NCBI GenBank assembly: GCA_004431415.1
Contig: QPMI01000005.1
Location: 1,054,001 to 1,118,000, forward strand
Source: Cyanophora paradoxa CCMP329
Lineage: Eukaryota > Plantae > Glaucophyta
DNA: 64,000 nucleotides
Reading direction: 5' to 3'
The notes below the pieces were generated by a model, which searched no databases, was not told the origin of the DNA, and saw nothing but the letters and a program-made list of their open reading frames with translations. Every line of letters starts with the position of its first letter. Positions within the stretch are counted from its first letter, which is position 1. Shown in pieces: positions 36,801-47,581 of this stretch. The translations under genes were made by a program, and so were the position numbers.

Positions 36801-39548
36801 TTAAACAGTCACGGAACATGCCTCGCCGGGGGTAAGAGGCGGGGGGAGGGGGGGCGGGGGGGCGGGGGGGGCGGGGGGGAGGGAGGGAGGAGGAGGCCGG
36901 AGATCGGTCCGCGGCCGCGGCCTGGGGCCGCTCGCGAGGCCAAAGAAGGCAAGGGCGGGGAACCCACAGAAAAATCTCACACAGAATCCACCGGGGGCCG
37001 GGGCCGGGGCGGCTCGGGGCCGGGGCCTGTTCCTCCGGGGAGCTCGAGGGCGGCGGCGAGGAGCTCGCGGAGGGCGCGAGCCCCGCGCCGGTTCTCCTCG
37101 TGCGCCACCAGCTGCCCGCCCCGTCGGCAGAGGCGGGGGGGCGGGGGCGGGGGGGGCGGGGGCGGGGGCGGGGGGCACCGCGAGGCCGGCCTCGGAGCGG
37201 AACTGCACGAGGCGCACGATCTCCCGCCTTTCCCCGACCCCTGTGCGCGCGCTCCGTCAGCTTCAGCGTCTGCCGGGCCGCCTGGCAGCCCGCCGCTCAC
37301 CCGAGTCGATGGTCGGGTCCGACGGGCGCGGCACCTGTGGCAGCGGTGGCGTCGGCGCCCGGCGGGGCGGGGCGGGGCGGGGTGGGGCGGGGCGGGGGCG
37401 GCGGGCCTTGGCGGGGTCCGACGCGATGCGGAGGATCACGAGCACCACGTGCATCGCCCCTGCCGGAGGGGTACGTGAGGAATGGAGGGAGGGGTACGGG
37501 GCGCGGCGGGCGGGCGCACCGCTCTCGCGCGCCGCGTCGACCGCCGCCTTCTCGGGCCTGCGGGGGCGGAGTGTTGGGAGGCGGAGAGGGGGAGGGGAAG
37601 GGGGGGGGGAAGGGAGGGGGGGAGGGGGAGGCGGGATGCAAGCGCGGGCAGGGCGGGGTGGGGGAGGCGGGGCGGGGCGTGGGGAGGGCGGGGCAGACAG
37701 CTAGGGCCGGCGGGGCGCGGGCGCGGGCGCGGGGCGGGGCCATGATCTAGGACCGGCGGGCGGTCGAGCCGGGTCGGGGCGGGGCGGGGCGGGCGGAAGC
37801 GGGCGAGGGAAGGGGGAGGAAGGGAGGGGGTTGGGGGGGGGGGGGGGGGGGGGGGGGAAGGAGCGCGGGGGGCGGCGAGCCGAGGACCGGGCAGGCTTAG
37901 GGGAGCAGGACCGCAGCGGAGGCGGAAGCTATGATCATGATCTAAGGCCGGCGGGCCGGGCGCGGGGCGGCGGGGCGGGGCGGACCGGTCGATGCGGTCG
38001 GAGGCGGCCTGTCCGACGACGACGGCGACCGGCGGGCGCAGCGCCGCCAGCTCCCCGGGCCCGCCCGCCGCAGCCGCAGCCGCAGCGCCGGGCCCTCGCC
38101 CTCGCCCTCGCCCGCGGCCGCCCACTCCGCCGCGAGCTGCTCCAGCAGCCCCTCCGGCGCCGTCGTCTGGCGCGCCCCGTCAAAGCCGGGGGGGGGGGGA
38201 AGGAGGGGGGTACGGGGGGTACCGAACCTTGTCGCCGCGGGCGTAGACGACGGGTACGACCTGGCCGGCCGCGTCGGCGGCGGGGGGCGCGTCGGGGCCC
38301 GCCGGGGGCCGGAGGGCCGCCTGCCGGGTTCCTCAGGAGGGGGGGTACGGCGCGAGAGGCGAAGGGGGGGTACCAGCTGGCGCTGGAGCTCCTGGATGAG
38401 GCGGCGGTCTTCGTCGCGCGCCGCCTTCAGCCGCCGCGTCTGCTCCTCGGCTTGCTCTGCGGGGCGAGGCGGGCGGGGTTGGCCCAGTGGGGCCTGAACG
38501 GCAGAACGAGGCGGAGCCGAGGCGAGGCGGGCGGGGTGGAAAGGGGGAGGGGCGGCAGCCTCCGACGCGCCGCTCTAAAGGGGCGAGGGCGAGCGGTGCG
38601 GGGCGGGGCGGGGCGGCGGGCACCGGCGCGGTCGCGGAGGGCGCGCTCGGCGGCGAGATTCTGGTCCGCCGCTTTCTCGAGGGCCGCCGCCGACGCCTCC
38701 AGGCGGTCCCGCGCCGCCTCCGCCCGCCCCCGCGCCGCATGCTGCGGCCGGGCGCACGCAACAACGCGTCAGAGGCGGCCGGCGCACGCGCAGGCCACGC
38801 GAGAACGGCCCGAGAACGCCACCCTACATACCTCCGCATGCAGCTGGACCTCGAGAGCCCGCTGCCGCCCCCCCGCCGCCCGCCGCTCGCCTTCGAACTC
38901 GTGCTTCGCCCGCTCGCGCGCCGCCCGCTGCGGAGCGTCAGCGTCGGAAGAAGCGAAGTTCTGGGAGAGGCACCTCCGATGCGAGCTGTGCCTCCAGCGC
39001 CTTGGCCCGCCCCTCCGCGGCCTCCAGCTGCCGCCGCAGATCCTGCGCCCTCGCCTCGGCCCCGCGCCGCCCGTCCTCGGCCTCATCCAGCCTCTCCTTC
39101 ATCGCTGCGAGCTGCTCCCCGGCGTTGATCGCGGCTGCCGCCTCGACGTCGTGCCACCACCGCTGCTGCTGCCAGAGCTGCTGCTGCTGCTGCTGCTGCT
39201 GTTGCACGTCGTGGTAGTGGTGCCAGAGCTGATGCTGCTGCTGATGCTGCTGCTGATGCCACGCGGGATGCGGCCAATGCTGCTGCGAAGTGTACAGTCT
39301 CTGCTGAGGCTCGTCGTCTAAGGCTGGAAGGATGTGGACGTAGCTCGGGTCGGCAAGCGCCGACGCCGTCCCGAAACCCGGCGGCGGGGCCGGCGGCCCC
39401 TGCGCAGCGTGGACGGCATGGGGCTGTAGCGGGGGACGGTACGGCCCCGTGGGCTGCTGGCGACAAGTGGAAGAAGGGGAGAGGGGCGGCGGCGCGGCTG
39501 GAGCCTGCTGCGACTGCGCCGCTGCTGCAGGGGGCTGCAGAGTCTGCC

Positions 39549-39580
<32 letters not shown>

Positions 39581-40400
39581 ACCGCCGCGGCGCCCGCCGC
39601 CGTTGCCCGCCCGCAACCCCAGCTGCGGCCGCCGGGATGGCCGCCGCCCCGCCACGCCATCCGCCGGCGCCGCCGCCGCCCCACCGTCCCCAACTCCGTC
39701 CGCCGACGCGCCCTTCGCGGCGGCAGGAGCCTCAGCCGCCGAACCGGCTGCGCCTGCCGGACCCGCCGCCTCCGTCGCCCCCGCCGCCCCCGCCGCTGTC
39801 CCCGCTGCCTCCGCCGGCACCGCTGCTTCCGTCGGCGCCGCTGCGCTCTTCGCGGCCTCCGGAGCCTCCGCTGCTTCCGCCTTCTTCGCCGCGGAACCGG
39901 CTGCGCCTGCAGGGCCCGCCGCCGCCTCCGCCGCTGCTCCCGCCACCTCCGCCGCTGCCCCGGCCGCCTCCGCTGCCCCCGCCGGCGCTGCTGCCTCTGC
40001 TGGCACCGCCGCTGCCTCCGCCGACACCGCCGCTTCCGTCGGTGCAACTGCTGCCTCCGCCGGGGCCGCGGCGGGTGCCGGGGACGCAACAGGCTGCAGC
40101 GACGCTGGGGCGGCTGCAGGCGCCGGCACAAGCTCTGTCGACGTATGCTCACGATCAGCAGCTCCGCTGTGCTGCTGCTGGTATGGCTGGTACGGCCGCT
40201 GCCGGCGCTGACCGTGGCCCCCGCGATCGCCACGTGGCCGCCGATCGCGCGCTGGCTCGTTGGAGGATCCCGTGTCGAGCTGGGGCGGCGCGTGCTGCGG
40301 CGCTGAGGCTGCGCCGGCGCCGGAGCTGGCGTTGACTACGATTGAAGGCCGGCCCAGGGCCCAAGCGCCCAAAGGAGCCGACGACCTGACAGCCGGCGAT
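36801..40400 (-). CDS. Hypothetical Ala-rich/poly-Q coiled-coil protein (5' structure uncertain)
   Basis: Ala/Glu/Pro repeats, Q/H/W tract, coiled-coil exons (QLAAMKERLDEAE..., AEQAEEQTRRLKAARDEDRRLIQELQRQL) and short C-terminal exons. Confidence 0.55.
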
Positions 40401-41403
40401 CCCGGTAGCGACTCATCCAGTACCGGGCGCTCTGCGTATACACGGCCATCGGACAGAGCAGGTCAAAGAGGCGGGAACGCACGTTGAGGTCGGTTGCGCT
40501 CGCCTCGCGATCGCAGAAGCCTGAGGAAGAAACCGACGGGGCTGTGAACGCCTTCACCACTACTCTGCTTCGCCCGCGCTTTCTGAATGACACGATGCAG
40601 AAACTCAACGGCATCATCCACAGATCTGAAGAGCGAACTTGCGAGACGGGAAGATCAACTCGTGCGCTAAGTCAAGGGTGTTGCATTCTAATCAAAAACT
40701 AAACGCACTCGAGCTCTCGGCGTGAAGCCGCGTCCAGCTGCCCGCCGGCTGCCTCCTCGTATTCGGCGATGAGCTCAGCGATGCCGGGCGCGCCGTGCGC
40801 GCTATCGCGGCGATTGCCTGTTGCTGCTAAGCGTCATCAGACGCGTACACGAGCTCGAGCCGCGCCTCGGGTCGGGCCGAGGCCGGCGTCGGGATGCTGC
40901 GCATGCACGGACCTTCTCTCGTGGGCGGCGCGGCGGCGGTGGACACATTGGAGCTCCCACTGTCTCCACCCATCTGCGCGAGAGGCCGATGAGCGCACGC
41001 ACGGTCGCTGAATGCTGGGTTGAGATACTGACCATTTGACGCAAGTTGGCGGCCGCGGGCGTCCGGTTGTCTCGGGCGAAGCCGCGCGGAACTGCGCGCG
41101 CCAAAGAAGTGCTCTTAGATACCTGAACGCGCCCGCGCGCGCCGAGAAGGCGCGGGATCCGAGCACTGCGATCGGCCGGGCCAGGCAACGCGCTCTGTGC
41201 GATGCGGCGCGGCGGCGCACGCGCTCGATCGGGTCGGATCGCTTGCGGATCGCGCAGGGGCTGAGCGGAGCTGCGCTCGCCGATAGATCGGCCGCCGCCG
41301 CTCTTTTTTTCGACCGAACTTCGATCGAGCTTTTCGCCGCAGCCCATCAGCGATCGGCTCCGCCGCACGCAATCTCGATCAACGCCCCCCAAAAGCGGGA
41401 ACG

Positions 41404-44400
41404 ATGTCGAACCAGGGCCCTGAGCTCTCGGCGTCCTCGCGCCCCGCGCCCGCGCCGCATCGCCGCGCGGAGCCACAGTTCGCGCGCCAGAACTTCGCCA
41501 AGACGTACCGCGGGCGCCCGTCTCCCTCGCCATCGTCCTCCTCCGGCTCCTCGTCGGGGCTGGACGTTGTTCTCGTGCGCGTCGTCGCGTCGCCCCCCCG
41601 CGCTGCCGCGCTCCGGACCGCATATGCATTCTCGGCGACGTACGCAGGTGATCGACGCCTCCGATCACATGCCGCCCTCGGCGCTCTCGGCCGCGCGCCA
41701 GGTCCGCTGCGCTCGCTTCGCGCCGGCGCATCTCGCGCACGTTCTGTTCGCAGGTCGCGTTCGAGGTCCTCGACCATCTCCCGCCCACGGCACGCGCCGC
41801 CGTCGTTCGCTTCGCTGGGGAAGCCGAGGCGCGTCGTCCTTCCGAGTGCCCTCGCGCCGTCCTGACTCGGCGCTCCGCAGATCCTGTGCCCGCTCTCGCC
41901 CGATCTCCAGTCCGCCGCGCTCGCTGTCCAAGGTTCGCTCTTCGCGTTTGAAGACGCGCCCGCTCCGTTCTTCACGCTCCTCCGCAGCGATCTCCTCGCC
42001 CGTGCTCGGCGTCGCCCGCCTCGCGGGCGCCCTCCACGCGGTCGCCGCCGACGTTCTCGTCACGAAGCACTCGCCCCGCAAGCGCCAGGCACGCCGCTTC
42101 GCCCCGAATTTGAATTCGAATTTGAATCCGCCCCGCAGGTCTGGATCCTCACGGCCGGAATGTTCCCCGCAGAGGCCCAGCAGGCCGCCGCCCGCGTCCT
42201 CAAGAGCGAGGCGAGAGCTCTTCCTTCCGCTGCTTATCTTTTAGCTTTCTGACGTTCTCGCAGTACCGTGTGACTGTCTTCGGGATTCTTTGCGGAAGCA
42301 AGGAAACCACCGCCGGCCTCGAGCCCGTCGCCAGCGTACGCCGTTTGACTCGCCGCTTGTACCCCCGTTCCGGCGCCGAATTCGATCCAGGTGGGGCGCG
42401 TGTACCCCCTGGACGGGCTCGAAGACGCTCTGGCCGTGGCTTTTCCGGAGTCGGAGGGGCGCACGGCGGCGGCGGCCGGCGAGCGGGGACCCCTCCCCGA
42501 GCGCTACGCCCGCGTGACGGGTACGCGTTCGCTCCGTCACGATCGTATCCCCTCAGCTTCGTTCGCAGTGAGCCGGATCTTCGCGGGGCGACCCCAGGTC
42601 CGCATCGGGCAGGACATCCACCTCGAAATCAAGGTACCCCTCTCGCCCCGATCCCGCTGTACCCCTCGTTAAACGGGTACTCTCCTCAGGTCGAAAACTT
42701 GGGACTGCAGTCCATCCCCGCCGGCTCCAAGGTACCCCCGCTTTCCCCCCTCCTCCCTCCCCCTGCCCGGACCCCGGTTCGAATCCGCGCAGGTCCTGAT
42801 CAAGGAGAACGCTTACTTCGGCTCTCTCATTGTACCCTTCGACCGTACGCTCGCTACAGGCGAGGCCGCCATGGGCCGGTGTGCCCGTACCCCCCGCCCT
42901 CTCCGTCCCAGGTCGCCGCGCGCTCACCTGTACCCTGCCGTAGGGGTACGCTCCCCTCGAAGGGCCGAGGCTCCCACGCCGCCCTCCACGAGTACCTCGA
43001 TCTCCTCCCCGAGGCGAGCCCGTATCCCCCTTATGCACATCTTGTGTATCCGTACCCCCCTTAAACCGGGTACCCCTCCAAAAGGTGGTCGAATACGCCC
43101 TCCTGAACGAGCACGGCGTCGTCGTACCCACCCAAGAAGACGCCTTCTGCCTCGAATTCCGTACCCCCTCTCCCTTTCTGCACCCCGCGCCTCCCGCCAA
43201 CGCCGTACCCCCCTCCAGAGGACTTCACGGGCGACCTTTTCGACTGGGAGCCGCCCTCGCCGCACGTCCCCCGGGCGAACGTTCTCCTCTTCGGTCCGAT
43301 GGGCAACGGCAAGAGCAGGCGCGTACCCCCTCCCCATCCCGGGGTACACCGTTTTCCAATTGATCCTTCGCAGCTTCTTCAACTCGCTCTGCACGAGCCT
43401 CAGCAGCCAGGTACCCCACTCTCCCGTACCCCCAACTCCCTCCCCTGTACCCCGACTCCCTCCGCCCCCAGGTCGTCCAACCGAGCATTGTGGGGGGCAC
43501 GGCCTCCCACGTCACGAACGAGTTCTTCGAGTTCAACCTGAACAGGCGCGTACCCCCCTCCCCCCTTCCCCTTTCCCCCTTCCGCCCCCCGCCCCCTTCT
43601 CGACCCTCTGAGCCTCGCGCAGCATGCGGGAGCTGCGGGACCTCAATTTCTCCGTTTATGACTCCTGGGGCCTCGACGACGAGAACTACGGGGGTACGCC
43701 CCGCGTTCTTGTACCCCCGAATGCAGCTAACTTCCTCTCCTTTTTCCCTTAGGCGACGAGATGGATCTGATCCTGCACGGGGCCATGCCCCTCCAGTTCA
43801 AGATGGACGTGCGCGGCCCCCTCCCGCTCGCTCGCGCCCTCCTACTCGCTCACGTCCCCTCGGCTGTGCCTGCGCGGCGCGGCGCTCGCCGGCGCCTCCT
43901 CCCTGCTGACGCCGGCCCCGGCAGAACACGGTGACGGAGAATCTGGTGCGGGAGCGCACGGGCGGCGCCGTCGTGACCTACAGCCCCGCCCGCAAGGCGC
44001 GCGCGCCCCTCCTACCGTAGTACCCGCCTCCTGCCACGTATCTGACGGGCGGGCGGGCGGGCAGATCCACTCGGTGGTCTTCATCGTGAGCGGCGAGTTC
44101 GTCGAGGTGCGGCGTGAGGCCCCACCAAGCCTCCTCCCCCCCTCCTCCTCTCCCTCGCCTCCCCCGCCCGACCCTCCTTGCCCTGCAGGCCGGGGGCGAG
44201 GACATGGGGCGGTTCGCGGAGCTCTACCGCAGGGCCACCCTCCACCTCCGTGCGCCCCCCTCTGCCGGTTTTGGACTAGAATCGTTAGCGAAGGCCCGGC
44301 TCCCGTGCGCCCAACTTGGCATCGCTGCCCTTGCTCGCCCGCCCGCCCGCCCGTCTTATACATCTCTGTGCCCATCTCTGCGTTCTTTCTACAACCTAGC

Positions 44401-45590
44401 ATCGGCAGCGAAGGCGCGAGCCGAAGTCAACTAAAGCGCGGGCGCGCGGGGGCAGGCCGGAAGGCGGTGGTGGCGATCTCGTACGCGGACCGCTTCGAGG
44501 GGGAGGCCGCCCGCGCCGCCCTCGTCCGCGCCGTGCGCCCCCGCCCCGCCTCCGCCCCCGATATCTTTCTTCGATCCCGAACTTTTTAGTCGATCCCGAA
44601 CTTTTAGTCGATCCCGAAGTGCTTAGGGCCGCCCTCGTCCGCGCCGTGCGCTCCCGCCCCGCCTCCGCCTCGCCCTTCCTGCCCTTCCCTGCCCCACTCC
44701 GTCGTCTGACATCTTAGAGATCCGCCTCGCCCTCCGACGCCGTGGCGGGCGGGGGGGCGGACGGGGGGGCGGGGATCTAGCTATAGAGGCTCTAAGAGTC
44801 TGAATCTTAGATCTGAGATCTGAGGCCTTTCCGTGCACTAGACGGGGCGATCCCTTCCCCGAATCCGCCGCCCCGCCCCGCCCCATCCTCAAAGCTCTGA
44901 CGCCGTGGCGGGTGGGCGGGGGCGCCAGGTGTGCGAGACGCTGCGGATACCCGCGGCGCAGGTCTACCTCCTCGAGAACTACACCGTTTCCAAGGTCCGG
45001 GCTAGTTAGAACAGCTTAGAATAGCTTAGGAGCAGCTGGAGCTTAAGAAGGAGCTGGCCTATATGTTATAAGCTTGAGGAAGAACTCAAGGCCTTAGCTA
45101 TTCTAGACCGTCCTCGTCGCTTTCTTGGAAGAGCAGAAGGTCCTAGCTATTTCTCAGCCGCCCCCGTCGCTTTCTTTCTCACCGCCCCGCCTCCTCGGCC
45201 CGGCGGGCGGCCTTCCTCCCACGCCTTTCCTTACCTCCTCGACGAGCCCCGCCCCCGCCCGCGCAGGACAAGTGCTTCCGGATCGACAAGAACGTGTACA
45301 GCATCGCGCACGCCGCTCTCCGCGCCGCGACCGACTTCATCGTCCAGGCGCGCTCTTGAACCTTTCTTTCAGCACTTTCTTGAGAGATTTAAGCTCATTC
45401 AAACTCTCCTGTCCCCTTTTCTCTAGAGCGCCTTCTTAGCCCCTAAGCTCCCCGTCTCACCGCCCCCCTAAGCTCTCCCGCCCCCCTCTCCCTTGGTCGC
45501 CTTCGAAAGCCCCCTCAAGTCCAGGCGCCCTTCTCGGCGCTCTCGCAAGAGATTTAGAATTCAAGCGCTCAAGGATTTGCCCATTCAAGC

Positions 45591-45625
<35 letters not shown>

Positions 45626-47581
45626 TCCTTATCCGCCCCCGCCCGCAGGACGAGATGGCGCCGGTGGCGTGCCCGTACGCCCTCGACCCCGCCTACGTCC
45701 CCCCGGCGCCGCGGGCGGCCCCGGGCCCGGGCGGCCGGTCCGGCGCCGTGGGGAGCCTGGCGGTCGAGGCCCGCGCCGACGTCCTGGGGCCCCAGGTTCG
45801 TGATTTCTCATATATTTAACGAGACATCTAGTGCCATCCCCGTCTAGACGTCTAGTTTAACTGATAGAATCTTTAACTTTAACTGTTAGGGAGAGCTTGA
45901 AGGGCAGCTTGGCAAAGAGCACGGAGGGAAGCTTCTAGCCTAGCCTAGCCTAGCGGGCGGGCGGGCGGACGTCCTGGGGCCACAGGTGCGGCCGCGCTTC
46001 AAAGGAAATCTGAACAGATTTAGAGAGCCTAGTCCGGACTCTCCTAGGCCTCCCCAAGTCTAGGACTTCAGTCGAGCCTGACACCTGGCCTGCGCAGTCG
46101 GCGGGCCTCTCGTCGCGCGTGTGCCCCTTCATGGCCAAGTCGGGCAGCTGCCCCGCCGGCACCTCCTGCGCCCTCCGCCACGGTCCGCCCCCGCCCCAGC
46201 ACCCCGTCCCTCCGTCCCTTGATCTTGAGCTAGAGCCTCCCCTCCGAATTGGCGCTTGAGCTTAAAGCTTAAGCCCCGACTCCGAATCCCCCTCCTAGAG
46301 CTTCCCTTTGACTTCAGCTAAGCTGGGTCAGCTTAAGCTCAGCTTACGCTTCTTAAGTCCTCCGCGTCTCTTGCGAGATCTTGAGCTAGAGCCTCCCTCC
46401 GGCTTGGCGCTTAAGCTTGAGCTTAAGCTCCTCAAGTCCTCCGTCTCCTAGCTTCAGTTTAGCTTCAGCTTAAACTCTTTGGCTTGGCTTAAGTGTAGCT
46501 TAGCTTAAGCTCAGCTGAGCTCTGACTCGGCGGCGGCGGGGGCGCAGACCTGGGGAGCCTGCCGTGCCGCCGCTGGTTCGGGCTCCCCGCGGACCACCCC
46601 CTCCGCTGCACCCGCGGCCCCCGCTGCCGCTTCTCCCACGACGACCGCTCCTGCCCCACCCCCGAGGACCGCGCCCGCGTCCGGGTACGCCATTCGTTTC
46701 CCGAAAGGATCGCGTACCCCGGGCCGGGCCGACGAGCCGGGACGTGGCGCAGGAGGAGGCGCGGCGCATGGGGCTCCTCAACAACCTTCACCAGCCGATC
46801 GCGACGCGCCCCGCGGCGGCGCCTGTGGCGGCGGCCGCCGCCGCCGCTCCGCCGCGCCGGAGCGGCTCCGGCGGGCGGGGCGGCCGTGCTTCCCTCCCCC
46901 TCCGCGGCCTCGGTCAGTGACCTGGCCCCGTTCTGTAACTGCCATGTACCCCGCAATCTGAACGAGCGAGCGGCACCGCGTGCAGGCGAAGAGGGTTTTG
47001 GCGGGGGCGGGGGCGAGGGGGGTAGCCTCCTCGCCGCGCTCCTCGGGGGCTTCCGGCTCTCGAGCCCGCCGCCGCCGCCGCCCCGCCCCGTCTCCTCCCC
47101 GCCGCCGCGCCGGCCGCGGGCGCCGGTGCATGCACCGGAGCCTGGCCTGACCCCAGCGGACATCCCCGACCGCTTCATCTGCCCCATCACCCTCAGCGTG
47201 ATGGAAGGCTCGCAAGCTAGCTCTAGATTCAGATCTGCCCCCGAGCCTCGGAGCCGGGCCGAGCCGGCCCAGCAGGGCTCTAGATCTCGTGATCACTCAC
47301 TACCGCCGTGGCAGACCCCGTGCTGCTGAACGACGGGAGCGGCCGGAGCTACGAGCGGGGGGCCCTCGCCCGCTGGCTCGCGGCCTCGGGCACCTCGCCC
47401 CTCACCCGCCGGCCTCTCGTGCGCCTAGGCCTTGGCCGAAGCCCTCATGATCAAGCCTGCTGAGCCGGGGCCGGGGGCGCAGCCGCGTCCGCAGCTGACG
47501 CCGAACCGGGAGCTGGCGGCCGCGATCGCGGCCTGGCGGGCCGGGGCGGGCGGCGGGGCCGCCGCATGTGCGACCCGGTAG
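41404..47581 (+). CDS. VWA domain + IFI44-like P-loop GTPase + two CCCH zinc fingers + U-box E3 ligase fusion protein
   Basis: VWA: LDVVL|VIDASDHM...AAVVRFAGEAE...RKRQ|VWILTAG...VTVFGI. GTPase: NVLLFGPMGNGKS|SFFNS, VYDSWGL, LILHG, IHSVVFIV, ISYAD, VYLLENY, ALRAATDF. CCCH: CPFMAKSGSCPAGTSCALRH and CRRWFG...CTRGPRCRFSH. U-box: IPDRFICPITLSVME|DPVLLNDGSGRSYERGALARWL...SPLT...LTPNRELAAAIAAW. Confidence 0.85.

Follow-up and report, generated by a model that had tools for sequence, protein, structure and literature searches.

The question raised by this locus is whether one polypeptide of the glaucophyte alga Cyanophora paradoxa joins a VWA domain, an IFI44-type GTPase, two CCCH fingers and a U-box, and what such a protein would do. 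The window analysed is a 64,000-nucleotide stretch of strain CCMP329 (GenBank assembly GCA_004431415.1, contig QPMI01000005.1, forward-strand positions 1,054,001 to 1,118,000), which consists of intron-rich, GC-rich eukaryotic DNA; all coordinates are those of the window. A preliminary description, made from the letters alone, had proposed this fusion and an antiviral role for it. The locus was found to be a real spliced gene that represents an undescribed variant of the IFI44-type family, the link to the U-box coming from models of its relatives and not from the RNA of this locus.

Two exon models were built. The first, assembled from a three-frame view, has 28 exons from ATG 41404 to TGA 46920 and encodes 779 residues with no internal stop. 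The second has 31 exons and encodes 918 residues; it drops 46913-46985 and gains exons 46986-47207, 47315-47418 and 47483-47581. From the ATG through the VWA domain, the GTPase and both fingers the joined exons form a single open frame, with introns of the GT/GC-AG type. Ten of the 30 modelled introns start with GC and not GT. The domain order is VWA, immunoglobulin-like (Ig-like) sandwich, IFI44-type GTPase, two CCCH fingers, Arg/Gly- and Pro-rich linker and U-box; the sandwich was not in the domain list of the preliminary description. The features are as follows (HMM, hidden Markov model).

41404..47581, plus strand: whole gene, 31-exon model; long form of 918 residues, short form of 779 residues ending at TGA 46918-46920
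41563..42426, plus strand: VWA domain, from the last part of exon 1 to the first part of exon 8, residues 54-211 (family VWA HMM, E 1e-45; no RNA joint seen)
42569..43160, plus strand: Ig-like beta-sandwich, exons 9-13 (HMM residues 252-347; RNA joints of introns 12 and 13)
43219..45347, plus strand: IFI44-type TRAFAC GTPase, exons 14-24, residues 357-601 (RNA joints of introns 14 and 17-23)
45649..45795, plus strand: exon 25, Pro/Ala linker behind the GTPase (linked with exons 24 and 26 by RNA contigs; identity to the paralog 70%)
46098..46182, plus strand: CCCH finger 1, C-x8-C-x5-C-x3-H, exon 26 (below the Pfam cut-off, best E 2e-4; RNA-joined)
46548..46684, plus strand: CCCH finger 2, C-x13-C-x5-C-x3-H, exon 27 (zf-CCCH_4, 26.1 bits, cut-off 24.6; RNA-joined)
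46753..46912, plus strand: exon 28, Ala/Pro- and Gly/Arg-rich linker (RNA joint 46684>46753 in four runs)
46913..46985, plus strand: intron 28 as predicted, 73 nt (donor GTCAGT is weak, with 46886 as an alternative; the RNA contigs that reach the intron retain it)
46986..47581, plus strand: exons 29-31, coding for a Pro-rich linker and an intact U-box that contains the insert DGSGRSYER (no RNA joint seen)

The gene's own annotation (P0012, tig00000042_g15614.t1) is a protein of 532 residues that ends early in exon 22, skips parts of the VWA exons and lacks the U-box. The new model restores residues missing from P0012 and so corrects a truncated gene model. Its intron content may be compared with the 9.2 introns per gene, of mean length 86 bp, given for the species in the Cyanophora genome paper (PMC6704402). 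An exon-word search (two proteins from 1,720 candidates) gave a paralog, P0013 (tig00001000_g6184.t1, 894 residues), which is modelled as one chain with VWA, Ig-like, GTPase, two CCCH fingers and U-box. Whole-length alignment of the new model with P0013, in which the alternative intron 28 donor at 46886 was used, gave identities of 100/161 in the VWA domain (62%), 91/121 in the Ig-like domain (75%), 186/243 in the GTPase (77%), 34/55 in the fingers (62%), 42/93 in the linker and 46/71 in the U-box (65%).

Splicing was followed in assembled contigs from eight runs (depth 2-7 on the gene), which were taken as RNA from their spliced GT/GC-AG joints. Joints were seen for 14 of the 30 introns, namely 12, 13, 14 and 17-27, that of intron 23 having just 25-28 letters on its short side; no joint was present in any contig for introns 1-11, 15, 16 and 28-30. 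The last GTPase exon was joined to both fingers within single contigs (X2 record 6, X5 record 13). The VWA and U-box exons were uncovered, which at this low depth, and with about 80% GC in the U-box region, is no evidence either way. X12 gave no match at the gene, and X10 and X11 gave short chance matches only. The one-polypeptide fusion of the preliminary description is upheld for the junction of GTPase and fingers, and agrees with the single frame and with the paralog and fungal models; the joints to the VWA domain and the U-box were not seen in RNA.

The GTPase carries, in the order claimed for IFI44, the motifs LLFGPMGNGKSSFFNS, DSWGL, ILHG, IHSVVFIV, ENY and LRAATDF. G1 (GPMGNGKS), G2 (HVT) and G3 (DSWG) are intact and conform to the TRAFAC pattern; the G1 Gly and the G3 Asp and Gly are invariant in 133/133 family domains. 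End-to-end blastp matches were obtained with the animal proteins P0004 (53.5 bits, 23% identity) and P0003 (51.2 bits, 25%), the maximum of 200 shuffles being 25 bits, and an HMM of three animal IFI44-like domains scored 48.8 bits over positions 6-242. Comparison of the family profile with the animal profile gave 99.9% (E 3e-34); one of the 33 rows of the family profile (P0159) is itself in the animal group. Four named IFI44-like proteins (amphioxus, Actinia) were reached through a motif scan that yielded two animal-type exons. In the metagenome motif scan 2/119 loci looked like IFI44 among the matches listed, and nearly all the others were ABC ATPases.

Membership of the AIG1, septin or MMR_HSR1 families, which would have spoken against the IFI44 assignment, was not found at the Pfam cut-offs. 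AIG1 and septin models gave no match at E 0.5 in P0012 or P0013, and MMR_HSR1 reached 13.7 bits in P0012 (cut-off 21.9) and had no match in P0013; the named IFI44-like proteins likewise score weakly on these models. The best PDB profile matches of the family profile were septins (40.9 bits) and IRG (31.9). For a model of the family member P0025 (predicted local distance difference test, pLDDT, 86) the nearest fold was Toc33 (Z 15.7, root-mean-square deviation (rmsd) 3.3, 206 aligned), followed by EngB (15.2, tied with Toc33, as was RagD), GIMAP7 (13.8) and septin (13.3). No IFI44 structure surfaced in the PDB searches, and NCBIfam gave no match at cut-off.

The VWA fold in the N-terminal half is supported by the paralog, in which Pfam VWA is found at E 1e-14 and Foldseek matches VWA domains at about 2 Å. 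The metal-ion-dependent adhesion site (MIDAS) is altered: DASDH and TAG were read in this gene, as had been claimed, and DVSEH and TAG in P0013, so that the DxSxS...T...D metal site is incomplete. The canonical site (DxSxS and TD) is kept in 13/16 non-Cyanophora rows with an intact N-terminus. AlphaFold models the Ig-like segment of P0013 as all-beta and at high pLDDT; the P0013 model (89 rows) has pLDDT mostly >90 over residues 61-620, a predicted template modelling score of 0.70 and a low-confidence tail, with the VWA domain, beta-sandwich and G domain each well formed. The structural evidence is that of the paralog and not of the spliced 918-residue model. No TLDc domain was found in the N-terminus by Pfam or by an HMM built here; VWA and Ig-like domains stand in its place.

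In the tail, the two C-terminal fingers and the U-box reported in the preliminary description were both recovered. Finger 1 has canonical spacing, finger 2 has a first loop of 13 residues, and all ligands of both are kept in P0013. Exon 30 alone scores 22.1 bits on the Pfam U-box model (cut-off 21.4), and P0013 scores 53.7 bits. A segment DG[ST]GxSYER is common to all four family U-boxes (three Cyanophora genes and the fungus Gonapodya). Compared with three plant U-box structures, this stretch is longer by two residues. No match was found with exon 27 as query among proteins of >=467 residues.

The family was collected by phmmer with P0012 (334 proteins at E <=0.001 among 1.84 billion), and the best 150 of the 334 were examined with HMMs built here: 150 have an IFI44-type G domain, 23 a VWA domain, seven a TLDc domain and three a U-box. 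Pfam found a VWA domain in 14 of 56 longer matches; other tails carry RING, zinc ribbons, SH3, EF-hands, kinase or Myb domains. Ten matches were looked up and comprise three from Cyanophora, one each from Gonapodya, Physarum and Phalansterium, and four metagenomic or unnamed sequences. Judged from these sequences, the architecture is no one-off but one version of that found in a widespread VWA-Ig-GTPase family. Scans of viral contigs (three) returned only unrelated NTPases.

Three Cyanophora genes, g12366, g12367 and g12369, share one contig (tig00020629). In P0014 two fingers are accompanied by three LOTUS-like repeats and then a U-box; P0015 and P0016 have fingers with five or eight LOTUS-like repeats (Pfam OST-HTH in P0015, E 3e-8). 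These three are neighbouring paralogs with near-identical GTPase domains, in which Pfam detects the LOTUS-like repeats only partly. In the monoblepharid fungus Gonapodya, P0028 (KAJ3341444.1) is VWA-Ig-G-LOTUS-like-U-box, with the U-box at E 1.5e-13; its LOTUS-like segment scores 17.1 bits on a Cyanophora-seeded HMM (maximum 4.3 in 500 shuffles). Two kinds of RNA-binding module thus occupy the place between GTPase and U-box in this family.

An IQ-TREE tree was computed from 49 of 133 domains, chosen by hand and rooted at the midpoint with no outgroup. This protein and its paralogs form a group (100/99) within 13 rows that include P0028, Physarum P0029 and metagenomic P0018 (99/96). The eight rows that have TLDc or are named IFI44 form a different side of the tree (99/96), and this protein falls outside them. 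The G domain is IFI44-like as judged by homology; orthology to IFI44 is not shown, and is not claimed because of this position in the tree.

The preliminary description had not recognised the architecture. No paper on non-animal IFI44-type GTPases or on this architecture was found in the open-access literature (closed journals and preprint supplements lay outside this scope), and the single match to IFI44 and EukProt uses IFI44L merely as a read-out (10.1101/2024.09.18.613514). The architecture is in this respect undescribed, and its core is the widespread one found in 23 of the best 150 matches. New here is the predicted tail of RNA-binding module and U-box in Gonapodya (LOTUS-like and U-box) and three Cyanophora genes. 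The U-boxes of all four have an insert in common.

Several known systems resemble parts of this protein. In IFI44, IFI44L and the invertebrate IFI44-like proteins (P0001-P0005, amphioxus, Actinia) the G domain is homologous end to end (23-25% over about 245 residues), with the same additional ILxG, NY and closing-helix motifs; they differ in having TLDc where VWA and Ig-like domains stand here, in lacking the CCCH and U-box tail, in G4 (TKVD/TKID, SYAD here), in lying on the other side of the tree, and in that the alga has no interferon system. P0004, named IFI44-like, likewise lacks TLDc. Proteins of Physarum (P0029), Phalansterium (P0033), Gonapodya (P0028) and a metagenome (P0018) have the same three-domain core in the same order, whereas most protist and fungal members have a canonical MIDAS and other tails, CCCH having been found in Cyanophora only. 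Toc33/34, GIMAP/AIG1, septins and IRG are the nearest solved relatives by fold and profile, but with far weaker, partial matches and 12-17% identity in the fold comparison. The ectodomain of ANTXR1/2 also has VWA followed by Ig, and ANTXR2 was the top Foldseek match of the P0013 model (E 7e-11, 312 columns); with an rmsd of 12.9 Å and 11% identity the likeness is one of domain order only. ANTXR proteins are extracellular and have an intact MIDAS. Fusions of OST-HTH/LOTUS with CCCH and U-box or RING domains (PMC2848206) combine RNA-binding modules and an E3 ubiquitin ligase (E3) in one chain, as does the family branch through the LOTUS or LOTUS-like repeats of P0014-P0016 and P0028, but this gene lacks LOTUS, and the main text of that paper contains neither 'GTPase' nor 'vWA'.

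With a probability of about one half, the gene product or its family branch would act as an RNA-tethered ubiquitin ligase that is gated by GTP. The two CCCH fingers, together with the Gly/Arg-rich linker, would hold the protein on an RNA-protein particle. The G domain, with a fold among the Toc33, EngB, GIMAP and septin GTPases, would be the on-off switch of the protein and might work by pairing, which is how those GTPases act. The U-box would recruit a charged E2 and tag either the protein itself or others in the particle, and the VWA-Ig end, with its altered metal site, may dock a partner or substrate. For LOTUS/OST-HTH proteins fused to CCCH and U-box or RING domains, ubiquitination of RNA-bound proteins has been proposed (PMC2848206).

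Several findings weigh against this assignment. The G4 motif is SYAD, in which the usual Lys is replaced; the Asp is kept in 119/133 family domains and Lys occurs in 52/133. The U-box is present in just 3 of the best 150 matches and the CCCH pattern only in four Cyanophora paralogs among 163 proteins, from which it follows that the core usually works without such a tail. In the tree Gonapodya is nearer to proteins lacking a U-box than to Cyanophora, so that, if the U-boxes go back to one ancestor, losses or transfer must be assumed. Every architecture given for the family comes from predicted genes, and the Cyanophora genome paper states that its gene models need manual curation (PMC6704402). 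Finally, intron 28 with its in-frame TGA (46918-46920) is kept in 2/2 spliced contigs that reach it, from two studies.

This last finding bears on whether the present copy is a duplicate with an uncoupled U-box, its main product being the 779-residue VWA-Ig-GTPase-CCCH2 protein acting as an RNA-binding switch or as a competitor of the full-length paralog. We regard this as possible, though less probable than the RNA-tethered ligase. A single transcript carrying the U-box was not confirmed at this locus, only the form without it being seen in RNA: both spliced contigs reaching 46913 read past the stop, to 46974 (X2 record 7) and 46966 (X3 record 11). The donor at 46913 is among the weakest, with 1.4 bits on a matrix of the gene's 27 other donors (leave-one-out range 0.0-9.9 bits; 2/27 known donors score lower), and the acceptor has 7.3 bits. 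TGTAA at 46934, inside the intron, is a candidate poly(A) signal only, no poly(A) signal for Cyanophora having been found in the open-access literature; the gene's own annotation, as stated, ends before the U-box. On the other side, exons 29-31 are stop-free, with good splice sites and a GC content at third codon positions of 0.88, 0.97 and 0.91 (0.91 in the core, 0.71 in intron 28), and no in-frame ATG lies ahead of the U-box (frame 46526-47329), so that these exons need this gene. The weight of the retention is also reduced because the same data, at depth 2-7, retain a real intron: intron 13 has been removed in X1 record 1 and is still present in X4 record 18. We read the U-box exons as belonging to this gene and as probably used via an inefficient intron 28. 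Since the U-box would be present only when this weak intron is removed, the copy may make mostly the ligase-free form, which is compatible with a GTP-gated, RNA-tethered E3 as the function of the family branch. Alignment did not discriminate between donors 46886 and 46913. Read-through of intron 27 to the U-box, along the open frame 46526-47329, was rejected, since RNA splices intron 27 and the alignment to P0013 was worse (396 vs 468 and 477).

The same biochemistry could be aimed at foreign RNA, as in an antiviral or anti-transposon sensor and E3 in one chain, a role we consider unlikely. Fusions of RNA-binding modules with an E3 also take part in the ordinary turnover of RNA. The antiviral role claimed in the preliminary description found no support here: the G domain lies outside the TLDc/IFI44 group, restriction of respiratory syncytial virus by human IFI44 is reported to be independent of its GTP-binding region (PMC7459546), and IFI44 is reported to dampen interferon and support viruses (PMC6712396). 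The human proteins IFI44 and IFI44L commonly serve as markers of interferon, and how they act is disputed (PMC7459546; PMC6712396). What speaks for defence is the kinship with an interferon-stimulated gene family, together with the presence in one genome of at least five paralogs with very variable tails, three of which lie on a single contig and have nearly consecutive gene numbers. Variable-tailed, clustered paralogs are a pattern common in defence genes. Moreover, Mx GTPases predate interferon and are found across eukaryotes (PMC11789081), and OST-HTH particles have been linked to counter-transposon defence (PMC2848206). A housekeeping role, in which a Toc34/GIMAP/septin-like GTPase and VWA adaptor would work on membranes or protein complexes with interchangeable tails and incidental RNA binding, appears less probable still. 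The nearest solved folds (Toc33, EngB, GIMAP7, septin), the profile matches to septins and IRG, the EF-hand, SH3, RING, zinc-ribbon or kinase domains of other members and the signal-peptide-like starts of P0024 and P0033 (by eye) agree with it; the CCCH or LOTUS-like modules in the tail of this gene and all four paralogs, the fingers 62% identical to P0013 with all ligands kept, and the lack of an evident membrane segment in this protein do not.

The fusions in distant eukaryotes offer a testable hint, since the tails in a glaucophyte and a zoosporic fungus pair an RNA-binding module with a ubiquitin ligase; as single chains, P0013 and Gonapodya P0028 lend themselves to such a test. It is doubtful, though worth stating, that IFI44-type GTPases might be an ancient eukaryotic family of which one branch would link the switch to a U-box and to CCCH fingers or LOTUS domains, as a self-contained, interferon-free enzyme of defence that finds and ubiquitinates foreign RNA particles. 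If so, RNA would be the ancestral target of a family that includes human IFI44.

Further observations were made on the locus and its relatives. A divergent minus-strand gene (41033-41286) is represented by a spliced RNA contig (X3 record 8; intron 41092-41220, GT-AG) and starts about 120 bases from the ATG of the gene, so that the promoter common to both would be very short. The gene's introns measure 48-116 nt, except for introns 21-26, which measure 206-396 nt. Two exon ends, each including its donor, are repeated within the intron that follows: that of exon 22 (44515-44556 / 44628-44669, 42 nt, 98%) and that of exon 25 (45772-45800 / 45962-45990, 29 nt, 86%). The minus-strand stretch 39083-40462 holds long frames of low-complexity Ala/Glu/Pro/Gln sequence; both strands are open there, and Pfam gave no match at cut-off. 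Among the VWA-Ig-GTPase relatives P0024, P0033, P0163 and P0085 have, by eye, signal-peptide-like starts or hydrophobic segments behind the GTPase, which would make the G domain lumenal or extracellular. Tandem IFI44-type G domains (at least two) occur in P0036, P0045, P0093, P0110, P0111, P0133, P0147 and P0038.

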